NCBI GenBank assembly: GCA_964537475.1
Contig: CAZIBY010000006.1
Coordinates: 154,641 to 218,640 of the forward strand
Source: an uncultured Chitinophagaceae bacterium
GTDB lineage: Bacteria; Bacteroidota; Bacteroidia; Chitinophagales; LD1
Direction of reading: 5' to 3'
DNA: 64,000 bases
A model generated the notes under the pieces. That model made no database searches, was not told the DNA's origin, and saw nothing but the letters and a program-made list of their open reading frames with translations. Of the stretch, positions 19,774 through 48,828 are shown piece by piece. The translations under genes were made by a program, and so were the position numbers. How positions within the stretch are numbered: position 1 is the stretch's first letter; each line of letters starts with the position of its first letter.

Positions 19774-20904
19774 TCACGGCTCATCTACAAACAGGTCTGA
19801 CGCTATCCGGTCTGCATAGTGACGTCCGGCCTGGGTCAGGCGGACTATATTCCCCTCCATTATATAGAAGGAAGCGTCTGTATCCTGTAGCGAGCCGACG
19901 ATCTCCGCCCTGAATGCTGAGACCTCCGGCCGGCTCAGGTCACAGCCCCACATGGTGCGTAGGGAAGTCATGATGTATTCATTGGCGCGCTGGGCGGTGG
20001 TCAGGTATTCCACTTCGTAGGGTAGCTTTCCCTCGCTTATGCTTTTGATATACGTATTGTTATTAGCCACATTCCACCGGCGCGAGGTGCCATCGTAGGA
20101 GTGAGCTGATGGTCCCAGGCCGAGATACTTCTTTCCCCGCCAGTAGTTCGTATTGTGTATAGCGTGATGACCGGGGAGGGCAAAGTTGCTGATCTCATAT
20201 TGGTCATAGCCGTTTGCAGCCATCTCCTCCATCAGTATATCAAACTGGCGGGAGCTCTGTATCTCATCTACGGGTACGGCGTGGCCGGTTCGTATGTTTT
20301 TATCCAGATAGGTCTTGGGCTCTACAGTCAGGGCATAGGAGGATATATGCGGAATACCCAGTGCGATGGCCTGTCGGATATTATCGCGCCAAGCCTCATC
20401 TGTCATACCGGGTGTACCATATATCAGGTCTATGGTCAGGTTTTGAAATCCGGCTGCCTGTACCCGCTCTATAGCACGGAGCGCCTCCTGCGCATTGTGC
20501 GCCCGGTTCATATATATAAGGTCAGCCTCACGGAACGATTGCACCCCGATGGATAGTCTACCCAGGCCGAGCGTACGAAGCCTACTGAGCTCTGCTATTT
20601 TATCTGCGGTGAGGTCATCGGGATTGGCCTCTATGGTCAGTTCTCCGAGGTGGACATCGGGATATGCTTTATAGATAGCCTCAAGTATCTGCCGTAGCTG
20701 ACCTGCCGCCAGCATAGTGGGAGTACCACCACCGAAGTAAATAGTCTCTACCGTCTCCCCATCCAGGTATCCACCGGTGAGCTCCACCTCTCTGATGATC
20801 GCAGCTACCAGCTCATCACGTCGGGCCGGAGATGTAGTGAAATAGAAATTGCAGTAGTGACAGGCCTGCCGGCAAAAGGGGATATGGATATAGATGCCTG
20901 CCAT
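19774..20904 (-). CDS. hemW: Radical SAM heme chaperone HemW / oxygen-independent coproporphyrinogen oxidase-like
   Basis: MAGIYIHIPFCRQACHYCNFYF (CxxxCxxC radical-SAM cluster), GGGTPT, and an HemN_C-like tail. I place the start at the ATG at 20904. The track's 43 extra codons precede the conserved N-terminus. Confidence 0.9.
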   Translation of the reverse strand: MAGIYIHIPFCRQACHYCNFYFTTSPARRDELVAAIIREVELTGGYLDGETVETIYFGGGTPTMLAAGQLRQILEAIYKAYPDVHLGELTIEANPDDLTADKIAELSRLRTLGLGRLSIGVQSFREADLIYMNRAHNAQEALRAIERVQAAGFQNLTIDLIYGTPGMTDEAWRDNIRQAIALGIPHISSYALTVEPKTYLDKNIRTGHAVPVDEIQSSRQFDILMEEMAANGYDQYEISNFALPGHHAIHNTNYWRGKKYLGLGPSAHSYDGTSRRWNVANNNTYIKSISEGKLPYEVEYLTTAQRANEYIMTSLRTMWGCDLSRPEVSAFRAEIVGSLQDTDASFYIMEGNIVRLTQAGRHYADRIASDLFVDEP

Positions 20905-20978
20905 GATCCAAAAATCAAGAATCTTATTGCCAATGCCAAAATCTAAATCCATCTTTAGCGTTATCTTTAGCTGATCGG

Positions 20979-22751
20979 ATGAAAGGATGGTTTTTATGGC
21001 TGGCCGTGTTTTGGCTAAAGGTAGCTGCTGCACAGGAACCCTGGCACCTGGAGGTGGTATGCCATGACAAGCCCGCTGTCTTTTTTACAAAGAAGCTTTC
21101 ATACAGATCTACGTTCCCTGACTCCATCCGTCAGCGCAAGGAGCTAGACTATCTGTATACCCAGATCAGAAACCAGGGATACCTGACTGCCTCTATGGAC
21201 AGCATAGTCACCCTCGGTCACACTACCTTTGCATATATATATGTAGGGGATAAGTTTGAGACCATCACTATATATAATGGTAATATCCCGCCGGACTTCC
21301 TGCCGGATATCGGATTGAAGAAACTGGGCGATGGCAAGACCATCCCCGCTGATGGTACTTTGCTCTTCAAGGAGAAAGTGATCCAGTCTTGCGAGAATAT
21401 TGGCTACCCGTTTGCAGAGGTGTGGCTGGATAGCTTTGATATGAGAGACGGGCAGCTATCTGCCAGGGTATACCTGAAACTTCACGATCTCTTTCACTAT
21501 GACACGCTGCGGATACAGGGCAAAACGAAAATACGCCCGCTGTTTCTGCGAAACTATCTCGGTATCAAACCCGGCAAAGTATATAATGAAGCCAGTGTGC
21601 GGCGCATCACCCAGCGGCTGAATGATCTTCAGTTTGCCGAGGTGATCAAGCCGCATACTGTCGAGTTTCGCGCTGAGAAAGCCCGTATCAATGTGTTCCT
21701 GAAAGATAGGAAGACAAGCCAGTTTGACTTGCTCATAGGCGTGCTGCCGGGCAGCTCCGGCCAAAAGGTGCTGATCACCGGTGATGTCAAGATACACCTC
21801 GTCGCGCCATTTGGTGCCGGGGAGGATCTCTACGTGCAGTGGCAGAAACTACAACCCAAGACTCAAACGCTCACCGCACGGATCATCTACCCCTATCTGC
21901 TCGGTCTGCCGCTAGGGTTGAATGTCAATTTTCAGTTTTATAAAAAGGATACCTCATACCTACAGATAGACGGAGACTATGGCGTGCAATACCAGCTCTC
22001 CGGAAACGACTACCTCAAGGCATCTTATCGCCAGAAGGTTTCCATCATTCTGGATCCGGATACGAACTATGTCAAGATAAACCGTGCCCTGCCCACCAAC
22101 CTGGATTTGAGCACTAATGAATTTGCTTTGGAGTTTTATATGCAGAAGCTCAACTACCGGTTCAACCCGGTGTCGGGTTTTGTACTCCAGACCAGTATAG
22201 CGGCAGGAGCGAGGACTATCAAAAAGAATACGACCATAGCCAGCCTATACGATCAGGTAGAGGGCAGAACTTTTGCCAGCCTGTATGATACTGTGCGATT
22301 GACCACTTTTCAGCTACACCTCGCGCTGATGATAGACAAGTTCTGGAAGATCAATAGCCGTATGACGATCCGTACCATGTTTGAGGGAAAATATTTCTTT
22401 GCAGACAGGATACTGGACAATGAACAATACCAGATAGGCGGTGTGACCTCTCTGAGAGGCTTTGATGACCGGTCCATCTTCACGCCATACTACGGCATGG
22501 GTGACCTGGAGTACCGCTACCTGATCTCAAAAAATTCCTATTTCTTCGCCTTCGTCAATGCTGCACTGGTGAAGGAACCTGGCCACTACGTCAATAAGCC
22601 TTTCGACTTTCCGTTTGGATTCGGAGCGGGCACTACCTTTGAGACCAAGATCGGACTCTTTGGCCTGACCTATGCGCTGGGCAAGCAGCTGGACAACCCG
22701 ATCTCATTTAAGAATGGCAAGATACACTTCGGCTATATAAATTACTTCTAG
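20979..22751 (+). CDS. BamA/TamA (Omp85)-family outer-membrane protein
   Basis: 590 aa. Signal peptide, POTRA-like N-terminal repeats, a beta-barrel with GGVTSLRGF, and a C-terminal ...HFGYINYF aromatic end. Confidence 0.7.
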   Translation: MKGWFLWLAVFWLKVAAAQEPWHLEVVCHDKPAVFFTKKLSYRSTFPDSIRQRKELDYLYTQIRNQGYLTASMDSIVTLGHTTFAYIYVGDKFETITIYNGNIPPDFLPDIGLKKLGDGKTIPADGTLLFKEKVIQSCENIGYPFAEVWLDSFDMRDGQLSARVYLKLHDLFHYDTLRIQGKTKIRPLFLRNYLGIKPGKVYNEASVRRITQRLNDLQFAEVIKPHTVEFRAEKARINVFLKDRKTSQFDLLIGVLPGSSGQKVLITGDVKIHLVAPFGAGEDLYVQWQKLQPKTQTLTARIIYPYLLGLPLGLNVNFQFYKKDTSYLQIDGDYGVQYQLSGNDYLKASYRQKVSIILDPDTNYVKINRALPTNLDLSTNEFALEFYMQKLNYRFNPVSGFVLQTSIAAGARTIKKNTTIASLYDQVEGRTFASLYDTVRLTTFQLHLALMIDKFWKINSRMTIRTMFEGKYFFADRILDNEQYQIGGVTSLRGFDDRSIFTPYYGMGDLEYRYLISKNSYFFAFVNAALVKEPGHYVNKPFDFPFGFGAGTTFETKIGLFGLTYALGKQLDNPISFKNGKIHFGYINYF

Positions 22752-23629
22752 TGCGCGCGATCATCACATTCCTGTTTCTTGTCTTCGCTGTATCGCTGCA
22801 TGCGCAGGATGATACGCTGGCCCTGGTGCAGGATAGTATACCTGTAGCAGATTCTGCCGCGCAGGTGATCGTGATAGATACTGCTGCGGTCTATCATGCA
22901 GACAGTGTAGCCCACTACTCATCTGCTCTGACAGGAGGCGCGAGAGCTACATGGTATGACATCGAGCAGGAGCGCCGCATGCCTGACAATACGTTTATGT
23001 TTCTCCTGCTGGTAGCGCTGCTCATCGTACTCACCACGCTGAAACTGGCTTTCAGCAACGATTTCACAGACCTCTTCAGATCCGTAGCGAGCTCTAATAT
23101 CGCATCGCAGATCGTACGCACATCACGCGAGGATCTATCGCTATCATCGTTTCTCATGAATGGCATCTTCGTAGTCTCCATGTCTATCTTCACGCGATTT
23201 GTATTGTTGCATTTTTATCCTTACTCTGCATTGTCCGACAATTTTTCAATAGTCAAGCTCATCATTTTATTCACATTTTTTTTCGTAGCGAAGTTTGCAT
23301 TGCTACGCTACATCGGAAATCTTTTTGAGCTGCGCGCATCAGTAGATGAGTACTTGTTTAATCTCTCTGCCATAGTCAGAACCATTGGTATTGCAATGAT
23401 TCCAATACTATTCATGCTATACGCATCATCAGAAAAATATTTCCTTTTCATCTTCATCGCATCACTTGTGATATTGAGCGCTGGCGTGGTGATGATCGTG
23501 ATCCGAGGTTTATCCACATCGTATAAAGTGATGTACAGCAGTCTGTATCATTTTTTAATATACATTTGTGTTGGAGAAATATTACCAGTATTTCTATTTA
23601 TTAAATTGTTAACCAAAACAGCTATTTAA
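22751..23629 (+). CDS. Polytopic membrane protein (DUF4271-like)
   Basis: 292 aa with a GTG start overlapping the upstream stop (TAGTG) and 5-6 hydrophobic helices. I recall DUF4271 proteins sitting immediately upstream of hemD-like genes in Bacteroidota. This is a family call from memory. Confidence 0.5.
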   Translation: MRAIITFLFLVFAVSLHAQDDTLALVQDSIPVADSAAQVIVIDTAAVYHADSVAHYSSALTGGARATWYDIEQERRMPDNTFMFLLLVALLIVLTTLKLAFSNDFTDLFRSVASSNIASQIVRTSREDLSLSSFLMNGIFVVSMSIFTRFVLLHFYPYSALSDNFSIVKLIILFTFFFVAKFALLRYIGNLFELRASVDEYLFNLSAIVRTIGIAMIPILFMLYASSEKYFLFIFIASLVILSAGVVMIVIRGLSTSYKVMYSSLYHFLIYICVGEILPVFLFIKLLTKTAI

Positions 23630-23630
23630 C

Positions 23631-23816
23631 ATGGCAACAAAGTCAACAGCAAAGAAAGCTGCCCCAAAGAAAGCTGCTAAGAAAGCCGCCCCTAAGAAGG
23701 CTGCTAAGAAAGCCGCTCCTAAGAAGGTAGCAAAGAAGGCTGCCCCTAAGAAGGCTGCTAAGAAAGCTGCCCCTAAGAAGGCCGCTAAGAAGGCTGCCCC
23801 TAAAAAAAAAGCGTAA
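23631..23816 (+). CDS. 61-aa Lys/Ala/Pro repeat protein (histone H1-like / AlgP-like basic repeat)
   Basis: MATKSTAKKAAPKKAAKKAAPKKAAKKAAPKKVAKKAAPKKAAKKAAPKKAAKKAAPKKKA. The ATG lies 1 nt after the DUF4271-like stop. The strand and frame choice rests on this context, because two minus-strand ORFs also lie open across the repeat. Confidence 0.5.
   Translation: MATKSTAKKAAPKKAAKKAAPKKAAKKAAPKKVAKKAAPKKAAKKAAPKKAAKKAAPKKKA
23651..23810 (+). repeat. Tandem 27-bp (9-codon, AAKKAAPKK) repeat, about 6 copies, ending in an A9 run
   Basis: Repeated gctgctaagaaagccgcccctaagaag-type units. An A9 homopolymer lies at 23802-23810, just before the stop. Confidence 0.9.
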
Positions 23817-23866
23817 GCTCGGGCAAGCAATCAAGATCTAACAGCAGTAGCACTTCCGGTCGCAAG

Positions 23867-24940
23867 ATGGCTGATGAGAAATCAACTAAACCGAGTGCTA
23901 CTGCTTTTATTTTGAAAAGCAGTAAGACTAAAAAGCCATCGTTAAATAAAGCCTCTGTGTCCTCTAAGAAAGTAGTAAAGCCGGCTCCCAAAGCTCCGGC
24001 CGCCCCAGTCAAGAAATCTCCGGCAAAATCTCCAGCCAAATCTTCCGCTACTCCTGCTCAAAAACCAACCGCAGCTACCGCAGCACCCGCACCTGCCGAA
24101 GAAAAAAAGAAGCCGGTAAGACTCTCCGAAATCCTGAAACCTAAAAATGATAAGAACTATAGTGAGTTTCTGAGTACTGAGCCTAAGACGCGCCTCAAAA
24201 ATATCATCGTGGCCCAGCCACAACCGGAAGGGATCAAATCTCCATACTTCGATCTGGAGTCAAAATATAAAGTCAAGTTTCAGTTTACACCATTTGTGAC
24301 TGTAGAGGGAGTACAAGGCAAGGACTTCCGCAAGCAGCGTATCTCTCTTAATGATTTCAGCGGAATCATATTTACGAGCCGCAATGCCATAGACCATTTC
24401 TTTCGTATCTGCGAGGAGCTCCGTGTCAAGATGAGCCAGGAGACAAAGTACTTCTGCACGTCTGAGGCTATAGCTCTCTATCTGCAGAAATATACCCAAT
24501 ACCGCAAGCGCAAGGTTTTCTTCAGCGATACTAATAGCAATAAGGAGATGCGCGCGCTGATCCTGAAGCATCGCGATACGACCAGGTTTCTCTACATAGG
24601 CCCGGAGGTCCGCAGCAAGGATGAGATCACCTCATTCATGTCTGACCAGAATATCCCATTCACAGAGGCGGTGATGTACCGCACCGTGCCGAGCGATCTG
24701 CGCAAGGTGGACCTCAGCAAATACGATATGATGGTGCTCTTTAGTCCGTCAGCTATACACTCTCTCTTCCAGAGCTTCCCGGCATTCAAGCCTGGTAAAC
24801 TGAAAGTAGGGGTATATGGCAAGACCACAGCCGATGCTGTGCTGGAGGCCAAATGGCAGATACACCTGATGGCACCACTGGAGGGCGCGCCATCTATCAT
24901 AGCGGCGCTGGATGGTTACCTGAAAGTTTCTAATAAATAG
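23867..24940 (+). CDS. Uroporphyrinogen-III synthase (HemD)-like protein with a ~100-aa basic Lys/Pro/Ala/Ser-rich N-terminal extension
   Basis: The C-terminal ~255 aa (LKNIIVAQPQPEGIKSPYFDLESKYKVKFQFTPFVTVEG...IFTSRNAIDHFF...VLFSPSAI) match the Bacteroidota HemD-like family as I remember it. No in-frame ATG lies near the domain start, so the KKPS...PAKSPAKS...EEKKKP extension appears to be translated. Confidence 0.7.
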   Translation: MADEKSTKPSATAFILKSSKTKKPSLNKASVSSKKVVKPAPKAPAAPVKKSPAKSPAKSSATPAQKPTAATAAPAPAEEKKKPVRLSEILKPKNDKNYSEFLSTEPKTRLKNIIVAQPQPEGIKSPYFDLESKYKVKFQFTPFVTVEGVQGKDFRKQRISLNDFSGIIFTSRNAIDHFFRICEELRVKMSQETKYFCTSEAIALYLQKYTQYRKRKVFFSDTNSNKEMRALILKHRDTTRFLYIGPEVRSKDEITSFMSDQNIPFTEAVMYRTVPSDLRKVDLSKYDMMVLFSPSAIHSLFQSFPAFKPGKLKVGVYGKTTADAVLEAKWQIHLMAPLEGAPSIIAALDGYLKVSNK

Positions 24941-47097: not shown

Positions 47098-47628
47098 CTA
47101 AGGTACGATTTGCTTCAGCCTTTCCAATACATAATAAACAGCCGGGCAGATAGTTGTGTTTAGGTGCGTCGTGTTAATGTATTCAAAAAAGTCTCCGGAG
47201 TCAGTGTAGGGATACTTGCGGCAGTCGCCGGGCCGGGCATCGTAGATCGAGCAATAGTTGTCCGCACCAAGAAAGGGGCAGGGGCTCTTTTGTACCACAT
47301 AGTCGCCATCCTCATCCAGGCGCAGGTAGCGCTCTATCAGTTGAGATTCCTTGATCCGGAGATATTTTGCTATACGGGATATATCCGGCGTTTTAAACCT
47401 CGGGGAAATATTCTTGCAGCAGCCGGCGCAGGTCAGGCAGTCTATTTTGCTAAAAGCCTCCTCATGCAGCTCCGGCAGCTCCTTTTCTATGCCCCGCTTC
47501 TTAGCCGCGCGCTTCAGGTACTCGCGGTTCTCTTTGCGCTTGTCGGTCGCTTTTTTTTTCCAGTTGTCCAGGAGGTCTGCCAAATGCCTGATTTTAAGGA
47601 TGCTGAATTGCCTCGTGAAAATAGGCAA
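47098..47628 (-). CDS. YkgJ-family (UPF0153) cysteine-cluster protein
   Basis: CLTCAGCCKN (CxxCxxCC) plus later CPF...C...C residues. The size fits the family. The basic N-terminal ~50 aa are unusual, so the start is uncertain. Confidence 0.65.
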   Translation of the reverse strand: MPIFTRQFSILKIRHLADLLDNWKKKATDKRKENREYLKRAAKKRGIEKELPELHEEAFSKIDCLTCAGCCKNISPRFKTPDISRIAKYLRIKESQLIERYLRLDEDGDYVVQKSPCPFLGADNYCSIYDARPGDCRKYPYTDSGDFFEYINTTHLNTTICPAVYYVLERLKQIVP

Positions 47629-47724
47629 AGGTGGCGATATACACTGTCTGCACCAGATTTCAACATTGGCGCGGGATTCTGCTTCAAAAAGTATATTTTC
47701 GCATTCCGATAATCAACATCGGCA

Positions 47725-48828
47725 ATGAGCAAAAGCTTCACTCAGGCACCCGCCCTCCTCGTACTGGCAGACGGTACAGTTTTCAAAGGAAAATCACTTG
47801 GCAAGATCGGTACTACTACCGGCGAGTTATGCTTCAATACGGGCATGACCGGCTACCAGGAGGTATTTACCGATCCGAGCTATTTCGGTCAGGTACTGAT
47901 CATGACCAGCGACCACATAGGCAACTATGGTGTGAAGCAGGACGAGGTGGAGTCTAAGTCTATCAAGATAGCCGGCATGATCTGCAAGAAGTACGCCGGC
48001 AATAACTTCTCCCGCCTGAATGGCAGCCAGTCGCTGCAAGACTATTTTGAGATCAATAACCTGGTAGGTATCAGCGATATAGATACCCGTGCGCTCACGG
48101 TGCACGTGCGCCAGGCCGGCGCTATGAACTGCATCATCAGCTCTGAGACGGATGATGTAGCGGCGCTGAAAAAGCAACTGGCCGCCGTGCCCGATATGAA
48201 CGGCCTCGACCTGGCAGAGAAGGTTTCTACCCAGGAGCCGTACTACTACGGCGATCCTAATGCCGGAAAAAAAGTAGCTGTGCTCGACTGTGGTATCAAG
48301 GAAAATATACTGAAGTGCCTCACTGACCGCGGTCTCTATGCCAAGGTATTTAACTGCCGCACGTCATTCGCAGAGATGGAGCAGTGGGCGCCTGACGGCT
48401 ACTTTATCTCCAACGGCCCCGGAGATCCGGCCCCGATGGACTATGCTATCCAAACTGTGAAGGAAGTGATCGCAGCAGACAAGCCGCTCTTCGGTATCTG
48501 CCTCGGTCATCAGCTGCTCGCACTGGCAGAGGGTGTCAATACTTACAAAATGCACCACGGCCACCGCGGGCTGAACCATCCGGTGAAGAACCTCGTGACA
48601 GGACGCTCTGAGATCACCTCACAGAATCACGGCTTTGAGGTCAGCGCTGCTGATATCAAGAAGAGCCCACGGGTAGAGATCACCCACGTCAATCTGAATG
48701 ATGAGACCATCGAGGGTATCCGTGTTAAGGGTAAGAAAGCCTTCTCTGTGCAGTACCACCCTGAGTCCAGCCCAGGGCCACATGATTCGCGGTATCTGTT
48801 TGATGAGTTTATCGCGATGATGAATTAA
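47725..48828 (+). CDS. carA: Carbamoyl-phosphate synthase small (glutamine amidotransferase) subunit
   Basis: 367 aa. LVLADGTVFKGKSLG, GEL.FNTGMTGYQE..TDPSY, GATase triad region PLFGICLGHQLL and VQYHPE. Confidence 0.95.
   Translation: MSKSFTQAPALLVLADGTVFKGKSLGKIGTTTGELCFNTGMTGYQEVFTDPSYFGQVLIMTSDHIGNYGVKQDEVESKSIKIAGMICKKYAGNNFSRLNGSQSLQDYFEINNLVGISDIDTRALTVHVRQAGAMNCIISSETDDVAALKKQLAAVPDMNGLDLAEKVSTQEPYYYGDPNAGKKVAVLDCGIKENILKCLTDRGLYAKVFNCRTSFAEMEQWAPDGYFISNGPGDPAPMDYAIQTVKEVIAADKPLFGICLGHQLLALAEGVNTYKMHHGHRGLNHPVKNLVTGRSEITSQNHGFEVSAADIKKSPRVEITHVNLNDETIEGIRVKGKKAFSVQYHPESSPGPHDSRYLFDEFIAMMN

Follow-up and report, generated by a model that had tools for sequence, protein, structure and literature searches.

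The 64-kb stretch of DNA analyzed here (the window) comes from an uncultured Chitinophagaceae bacterium (contig CAZIBY010000006.1) and features a short open reading frame (ORF) for a lysine-, alanine- and proline-rich peptide, ORF1 or the mini-ORF, that is followed by ORF2, which encodes a protein resembling uroporphyrinogen-III synthase (HemD). Comparison with related loci suggests, with a probability of about 0.78, that the two ORFs are one gene that is decoded through a programmed -1 transition at a run of nine adenines (A9) at positions 23802-23810. Translation would start at ATG 23631, coupled to the stop codon of the upstream DUF4271 gene, and without a slip the ribosome would stop at TAA 23814, freeing a 61-amino-acid (aa) polycationic peptide. 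A fraction of decoding events would instead shift to the -1 frame and run on to 24940, giving a 436-aa protein. A slip by RNA polymerase that adds one A and a -1 ribosomal shift on A_AAA_AAA would give the same protein, …PKKK-SVSSGKQSRSNSSSTSGRK-MADEK…, and the free 61-aa peptide may be real as one of the two products. The locus most likely adds a new example, one that spans a whole clade, to a known kind of recoding, in a family and a phylum for which none was found described.

The A9 run is the sole run of at least nine adenines in the window. The HemD-like frame is -1 relative to the mini-ORF and is open from 23804, inside the run, through the apparently intergenic stretch of 50 nucleotides (nt) between the mini-ORF stop (TAA 23814-16) and the next ATG (23867), and on past that ATG. 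A -1-frame stop (TAA 23801-03) and the 0-frame stop bracket an overlap of 10 nt that consists almost wholly of the run. A slippery heptamer of the type X_XXY_YYZ is present in the 0 frame, as A_AAA_AAA in the window and in the type of locus represented by L007 and as A_AAA_AAG in L016, L018, L020, L021, and L210. As read from the sequence, this anatomy is that of a classic recoding site. A run of at least nine A's in the overlap, conservation of the site and of the frame, and selection on a downstream ORF that has no conserved start are traits of the slippage class of recoded genes, and all of them were found here.

Orthologous loci were collected by exact-protein look-ups, by scanning genomes that each represent one GTDB species, and by searching metagenome DNA for the pattern GGCTGATGWGAHATCAMC. 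The last of these gave 8 true loci among 80 fetched; the remaining matches have no 5' arm of the hairpin described below and are presumably due to chance. The split layout is present in all 13 genome-scan loci with at least 58% identity and upstream sequence, as well as in the more divergent loci L210-L213, and in none of 66 more distant HemD-like loci. The HemD-like domain lies in the -1 frame in 25 of the 25 tabulated loci that hold the mini-ORF start and also in L211-L213, and this offset is constant despite mini-ORFs of 20-91 aa and spacers of 26-87 nt. The run is A9 or A10 in 26/26 tabulated loci, A10 being found in the L007/L014/L019 type, and it is A9 in L211-L213. In the related loci a -1-frame stop is located 0-24 nt upstream of the run and a 0-frame stop 0-7 nt downstream of it. 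Two kinds of slip context occur, CCT AAA AAA AAA GCG TAA in group A, and GCA AAA AAA AAA TAA or GCA AAA AAA AAG TAG/TAA in group B, and therefore the site has been remodelled while its properties were kept. The length of the tract is identical among near-identical independent assemblies (NCBI metagenome-assembled genomes, JGI, and Logan).

In most species (L011, L023, L012, L007, L014, L016, L018-L021, and L210-L213) the stretch from the run to the HemD core lacks an ATG, and because of this the start calls are inconsistent: gene-calling pipelines either choose arbitrary GTG or TTG codons for the HemD-like start or lose conserved sequence. Public annotations of L001 (6327), L002 (389), L007 (5001), and L210 (2501) place the HemD-like start at differing GTG/TTG codons and usually omit the 5' ORF. 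If the two ORFs are one gene, the annotation of the clade is wrong throughout: at least three different, arbitrary sites serve as the HemD-like start, and the 5' ORF is missing or listed as a hypothetical protein of its own.

The spacer between the run and the hairpin was compared in 16 representative loci. Over its 331 codons the HemD frame has no stop, whereas the other two frames have 28 and 31. Multiplied over the loci, the shuffle probabilities come to 10^-9.15, a value in which the kinship of the loci somewhat overstates their independence. All indels in the spacer are multiples of three, the translated spacer is consistently rich in lysine, serine and alanine, and the segment 23810-23866 is carried in frame by homologues, including the metagenome protein P0056 discussed below. 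On this comparative evidence the spacer is coding in the HemD frame. The preliminary description had judged the basic extension of the HemD-like protein to be translated, and the in-frame indels, the conserved motifs and the frame that stays open agree with that proposal. Its remark that no in-frame ATG lies close to the domain start also holds, since no in-frame Met was found before the core. Within the linker, the repeat of KSPA units is polymorphic between near-identical strains, L001 having one unit fewer than the window and L002.

The fused form of the protein exists in P0056, from a JGI 3300071358 metagenome contig, in which the basic tail is fused in frame to the HemD-like domain and the start is located 3 nt after the upstream gene. 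P0056 reads MATKKKAAKKAAKKPAKKKAAKKK-ISKRASS…GSKASNSSSTL…, the mini-ORF sequence continuing directly in the HemD frame. In L007 and L019, one additional A or a -1 shift is predicted to produce precisely this junction, AAKKK-ISKR. The junction in the window would be …KKK/SVSS… and the group-B equivalent …KKK/ISKR…, and P0056 (…AAKKKISKRASS…) matches the group-B junction. Low-complexity K/A candidates overwhelmed a word-index protein search with the virtual junction, which gave 1 hit.

Beyond the clade, 104 full-length representatives of the HemD-like family at 50% identity were obtained by an exhaustive HMMER search. Extensions of at least 40 aa are present in 37 of these, 17 at the N-terminus and 20 at the C-terminus; 30 of the 37 are strongly basic, with a net charge of +10 to +72, and the other 7 are weakly basic or near neutral. 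In related lineages, K-rich tails of 50-214 aa are in frame with the HemD-like domain at either terminus, and in-frame versions beginning MAKK… or MPTTTKKK… adjoin DUF4271 in L031, L035, L041, L058, and L070. A polycationic tail joined to a HemD-fold domain is therefore a recurrent architecture of the family, and from these comparisons the window's clade carries that architecture interrupted by a frameshift site. The preliminary description had proposed that a polycationic tail was duplicated or translocated and now occurs both as a free peptide and as part of the HemD-like protein. The association of such a tail with the HemD-like domain stands, while two independent genes are not supported: on the comparative evidence the mini-ORF is the 5' part of the HemD-like gene, set apart by a conserved -1 frameshift site at A9/A10. 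In other Bacteroidota (P0127, P0154, P0158, P0226, and others), C-terminal tails rich in K/A/P/T reach 222 aa with a charge of +72. The distant relative L070 (~1930-1960) features a GTG start, MPTTTKKKSATKKK… and an in-frame A10 run, at which slippage would truncate the protein and not complete it.

The mini-ORF peptide contains 26 Lys in its 61 aa. A MATK start located 1-3 nt 3' of the DUF4271 stop is kept in about 20 loci, and the mini-ORF, which consists of K/A/P repeats and is 20-91 aa long among the related loci, always changes its length in frame. An identical MATKKKAAKKAAKK is encoded in five species despite nine synonymous third-position differences, and all 5 strain-level differences in the mini-ORF are synonymous in its own frame. 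The mini-ORF is, as judged from these substitution patterns, under protein-level selection. The mini-ORF, its 27-base-pair (bp) repeats, the gaps of 1 nt and 50 nt on its two sides and the basic N-terminus of the HemD-like protein are all present in the sequence as first described, although the count of six repeat units is slightly lowered to 5.6 copies by Tandem Repeats Finder (TRF). The label 'H1-like' holds for the composition of the peptide and not for its ancestry, as the 61-aa peptide has no family at E≤0.1 in Pfam or NCBIfam. Copy number of the repeat, another point raised in the preliminary description, varies between relatives and always in frame. Among close relatives (L015, L169, L004, L011, L023, and L016/L162) the number of K/A/P units gives 5' ORFs of 52, 59, 61, 67, 68, and 77 aa, again always in frame, and the 5' ORF of L162 is 69 aa compared with 79 aa in L016.

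ORF2 consists of a basic disordered linker (residues 1-~108) and a uroporphyrinogen-III-synthase-fold domain (residues ~110-357). The first ~95 residues are K/P/A/S-rich and predicted to be disordered, with a predicted local distance difference test score (pLDDT) below 50, and the AlphaFold2 model of the core has a pLDDT of 85-95. PF02602 (HEM4) matches residues 140-344 with 85.5 bits against a cutoff of 27.5, and the top 13 Foldseek hits are all uroporphyrinogen-III synthases at 14-17% identity and a probability of 1.00. The protein thus resembles HemD (PDB 4es6, 1jr2, and 3re1) in passing the Pfam threshold and in its two-domain fold. It differs from HemD in that low identity, in failing all of the NCBIfam HemD equivalog models (15-24.6 bits against cutoffs of 223-432), in the recurrent polycationic tails and in its constant DUF4271 neighbor. 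A further difference is that its orthologue is retained by haem-auxotrophic Bacteroidota that lack HemA, HemL, HemB, and HemC (PMC13096392), which accords with the statement in the preliminary description that the Bacteroidota HemD-like paralogue has no established role. The HemD-fold protein is probably not a haem-pathway enzyme. The alignment of the domain has a mean column identity of 59% and many invariant residues, and the domain is therefore not a decaying pseudogene.

Polycationic tails have been described in the C-terminal tail of histone H1, in Pseudomonas AlgP, in chlamydial Hc1/Hc2, and in the Lys-rich tails of actinobacterial HU. The window's tail shares with them the K/A/P tandem repeats (AAPKKAAKK), the strong positive charge and the predicted disorder. 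It differs from them in lacking detectable homology to them and in forming the N-terminal portion of a HemD-fold protein, and its nucleic-acid binding is putative. Because such tails recur at either end of the domain and the orthologues are kept without the early haem pathway, we infer, on compositional grounds only, that the tail, whatever its position, tethers the protein electrostatically to a polyanion, which is most likely nucleic acid. The link between the orphan Bacteroidota 'HemD' and long polycationic tails at either terminus offers a lead on the unexplained retention of this protein, namely a possible association with polyanions or nucleic acids.

Two routes could produce the -1 transition. 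Addition of one A by RNA polymerase slippage is given slightly better than even odds. It is favored because every species keeps 9-10 A's, about the length of the RNA-DNA hybrid, though a heptamer suffices for the ribosome; because an invariant GCA alanine codon lengthens the group-B run, which a ribosomal heptamer does not need; and because there is no stimulatory structure 5-9 nt downstream. Ribosomal -1 frameshifting or sliding on A_AAA_AAA or A_AAA_AAG is a tentative second route, and both may contribute.

Cellular, non-mobile genes with programmed frame changes are few and include prfB, dnaX, and a handful of others. Slippage at runs of nine A or T is efficient in bacteria and is used by dnaX of Thermus thermophilus, and A_AAA_AAG and A_AAA_AAA are known -1 sites (PMC3711429; PMC5009743); additionally, ribosomes slide on poly(A) (PMC4363877). 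Like T. thermophilus dnaX, which gives tau and gamma, the window's gene is chromosomal and non-mobile, features a run of 9-10 A's, and would give two products that share an N-terminus. The two-ORF dnaX genes of Chlorobi (A7-A10) are also similar, in that the long product needs a frame change and a 0-frame stop is located directly after the run (PMC3711429; PMC5009743). In contrast to these dnaX genes, the window encodes a HemD-fold protein with a polycationic tail and not a clamp-loader subunit, belongs to the phylum Bacteroidota, has a low-complexity peptide as its short product, features a conserved hairpin 29-87 nt downstream, and is known here from sequence comparison. The -1 frameshifting of Escherichia coli dnaX is alike in its A_AAA_AAG heptamer (group B; A_AAA_AAA in the window), its -1 direction and its Lys codons, whereas the window's clade has no stem-loop 5-9 nt downstream and always keeps at least nine A's, beyond what the ribosome needs. 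Slippage at A/T runs of ~9-10 also allows out-of-frame gene expression in Buchnera, Blochmannia, and the Shigella mxiE/spa genes (PMC5009743). Unlike the reduced, AT-rich genomes of Buchnera and Blochmannia, the window represents free-living environmental Chitinophagales with ~50% G+C, and its site, in two contexts, is kept throughout a deep clade in which the identity of the HemD core falls to ~54-60%. This deep conservation and the two contexts argue that the site is programmed rather than incidental. In the literature, no published description of a split HemD-like gene was found, nor one of a programmed frame change in a cellular, non-mobile Bacteroidota gene, and the GeneTack paper with its supplements features no uroporphyrinogen/HemD cluster. 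The locus would provide a sequence-diverse, clade-wide example of recoding with natural in-frame controls.

A second conserved element, a covarying two-tier RNA hairpin, is located inside the -1-frame coding sequence and begins 29 nt downstream of the run in group A and 80-87 nt downstream of it in group B. Its basal stem is formed by 23843-23854 pairing with 23894-23905 and is followed by a UC bulge and 4 bp more; the apical hairpin (23869-23887) holds a conserved GGCUGAUGAGAAAUCA, and a U-rich tract occupies 23906-23913. Pairing across 13 distinct sequences holds in 91.8% of the cells, and 7 of the 16 pairs feature compensatory double changes, for example AGU/ACU versus AGC/GCU and GCA/UGC versus GCG/CGC. 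None of 500 shuffles reaches the pairing of the hairpin, slid controls pair at 27-68%, and RNAalifold agrees with the structure. All clade loci searched (20 records, two of which are the same place) score 66-92 bits with a covariance model, which finds nothing significant on the + strand of 66 other HemD-like loci; the in-frame relatives have no comparable fold. The hairpin features G·U pairs and the covariance-model scores are asymmetric between the strands (86 versus 27 bits), and therefore the structure is formed in the + strand RNA. An Rfam scan of 23500-24300 gave only two chance-level hits (E 1.2 and 2).

The peptide motifs NSSST and SATAF/SATSF correspond to the two arms of the hairpin, which is built of Ser (AGY) and Ala/Thr (GCU/ACU) codons in a disordered coding region, so that a constraint on RNA can mimic a peptide motif. 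A near-invariant out-of-frame GAUG is located in the apical stem; in the group-B loci it reads AUG-UGA, a start directly followed by a stop, and in the window it opens an out-of-frame ORF of 13 codons. A function as stimulator of -1 programmed ribosomal frameshifting is ruled out by the distance from the run, 29-87 nt and variable, and a function as stimulator of RNA polymerase slippage is ruled out since the hairpin is transcribed after the run. Some traits are terminator-like, namely a 12-16-bp stem that is followed by UUUAUUUU in the window and by a U-rich tract in most loci. The U tract is weak in L018 and L211-L213, and the loop of ~27-40 nt has a hairpin of its own. A terminator consensus scan, whose loop limit is 8 nt, did not call the hairpin. 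Speculatively, it might serve as a terminator gated by translation, prevent internal initiation, or be a binding site for autoregulation.

The coordinates and the coding arrangement of the locus could also be read as two independent cistrons, in which a free H1-like 61-aa protein (23631-23816) is followed by a HemD-like protein that starts at ATG 23867 in the window and at GTG or TTG elsewhere, the 50-nt spacer and the hairpin then being a structured intergenic leader that controls HemD-like initiation. Such a leader would fit the location of ATG 23867 in the internal loop of the conserved hairpin, that of the in-frame group-B GTG used by gene callers in the apical hairpin, and the RNA-level constraint in the spacer region. 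However, ATG 23867 is not conserved, being AAG in L011, L023, and L012, and the corresponding position holds neither ATG nor GTG nor TTG in L211, L212, and L213. Two cistrons also leave unexplained that the spacer upstream of the hairpin is free of stops in the HemD frame, that the -1 offset is constant with an A9/A10 run always in the overlap, and that the tail is in frame in P0056 and many relatives, and this arrangement is considered improbable. Phase variation at the DNA level, in which slipped-strand mispairing switches a population between fused (ON) and split (OFF) genotypes, would explain P0056 as the allele that an L019-like locus with one more A would encode, and poly(A) tracts are indeed slippery for DNA polymerases (PMC3711429). 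Against this stand the same out-of-frame length in every assembly examined (A9, or A10 in the L007/L014/L019 type) and the scarcity of fused alleles: none of six predicted fusion proteins was present in an exact look-up among ~15 billion proteins, and P0056 alone is fused among the 120 best 90%-identity clusters around it. Furthermore, so conserved a domain would not stay OFF in essentially all populations, which makes phase variation very doubtful. Homopolymers are error-prone in some sequencing chemistries, so a sequencing or assembly error, or alternatively decay through a recent frameshift, would also produce a split gene. However, about 20 species-level lineages, taken from separate projects and different assemblers, share the same -1 requirement in two slip contexts, the downstream domain is under strong purifying selection, and the mini-ORF shows only synonymous changes, which together reduce artefact or decay to a negligible chance.

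Several points weigh against a single recoded gene. The support for recoding is wholly comparative: what the comparison shows is the anatomy and how well it is conserved, along with a spacer that is coding and homologues that carry the tail in frame, while the occurrence, mechanism and efficiency of the slip and the function of the protein are inferred. The related loci share ancestry, so that the counts are not fully independent. P0056 is represented by a single 2.3-kb metagenome contig and was compared as a protein sequence. The window species has the in-frame ATG 23867, at which internal initiation could yield a 357-aa form with no tail, and the group-B species carry an in-frame GTG in a comparable position. 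On the downstream side of the run, which was examined, there is no classical frameshift stimulator at 5-9 nt. Finally, part of the apparent protein conservation upstream of ATG 23867 (NSSST … SATAF) is imposed by the hairpin.

A speculative extension of the single-gene reading, which we regard as rather unlikely, combines the A9/A10 slip site and the clade-specific hairpin into a two-step decoding switch, with the HemD-fold product as a nucleic-acid-associated factor instead of a haem enzyme. In such a switch only -1-shifted transcripts or ribosomes would translate through the hairpin and melt it, while in unshifted messages it would fold, leading to termination, to degradation or to a message that does not admit internal initiation. 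The switch would set the ratio of the free polycationic peptide to the tail-bearing HemD-fold protein. If true, it would explain why all Bacteroidota, haem auxotrophs included, retain a 'HemD'.

Table 1. Features of the Omp85-DUF4271-HemD-like locus, with positions counted from the first letter of the window (MFE, minimum free energy)
Feature	Position	Strand	Remarks
Omp85/BamA-like outer-membrane gene	20979..22751	+	PF01103 and PF07244; first in conserved string
DUF4271 membrane protein gene	22751..23629	+	PF14093, E 4.6e-20
Proposed single recoded gene	23631..24940	+	virtual fusion, 436 aa: tail, S/K-rich linker, HemD-fold domain
ORF1 (mini-ORF), K/A/P-rich polycationic 5' segment, 0 frame	23631..23816	+	61 aa, MATKSTAKKAAPKKAAKK…KKKA
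27-bp tandem repeat encoding AAPKKAAKK units	23652..23803	+	TRF: 5.6 copies, 87% matches, score 227
A9 slip site, CCT AAA AAA AAA GCG TAA	23802..23810	+	proposed place of -1 frame transition
Apparently intergenic 50 nt and end of ORF1, predicted coding in -1 frame	23810..23866	+	S V S S G K Q S R S N S S S T S G R K
Covarying two-tier RNA hairpin inside -1-frame coding sequence	23834..23913	+	MFE -41.3 kcal/mol, z -4.3
ORF2, HemD-like protein as gene callers see it	23867..24940	+	357 aa; PF02602
12-bp tandem repeat of KSPA units in linker	24014..24043	+	TRF; polymorphic between strains

The genes of the string are tightly packed. The stop codon TAG of the Omp85 gene and the GTG start of the DUF4271 gene share 1 nt (22749-22753), and the DUF4271 stop (TAA 23627-29) is followed by a C and then by the mini-ORF ATG at 23631, a 1-nt gap. 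The spacing of the Omp85/DUF4271 and DUF4271/5' ORF junctions (22749-22753 and 23627-23633) is seen again in related loci, the gene order Omp85-DUF4271-mini-ORF-HemD-like is common to L001, L004, L007, and L210-L212, and a DUF4271 gene is located directly upstream of the HemD-like gene across Bacteroidota loci. The suggestion in the preliminary description that the tight string is co-expressed is thus consistent with a string that is both tightly coupled and syntenic in related loci. The frame that the DUF4271 and HemD-like genes share via the mini-ORF was considered and rejected as a coincidence, as it holds in the window and not in L007. A promoter consensus scan gave nothing useful for the locus, and literature searches on DUF4271 and on lysine-rich HemD in Bacteroidota found nothing relevant.

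The only other homopolymer of at least nine in the window is a T9 at 47551-47559 on the + strand, which is an A9 on the minus strand. It is located near the 5' end of a minus-strand CxxCxxCC (YkgJ-like) ORF (…DNWKKKATDKRKENREYLKR…) that has no upstream in-frame ATG and that is overlapped by a second ORF in another frame (47628..47098 and 47741..47514). The run could be another slippage-prone site, or nothing. Closer to the HemD-like gene, a gene for a HemW-type radical-SAM haem chaperone (TIGR00539, 282 bits) is located at 19774-21033 on the minus strand, divergent from the Omp85-DUF4271-HemD-like string, and this divergent gene is present in the window, L001, L004, and L007.

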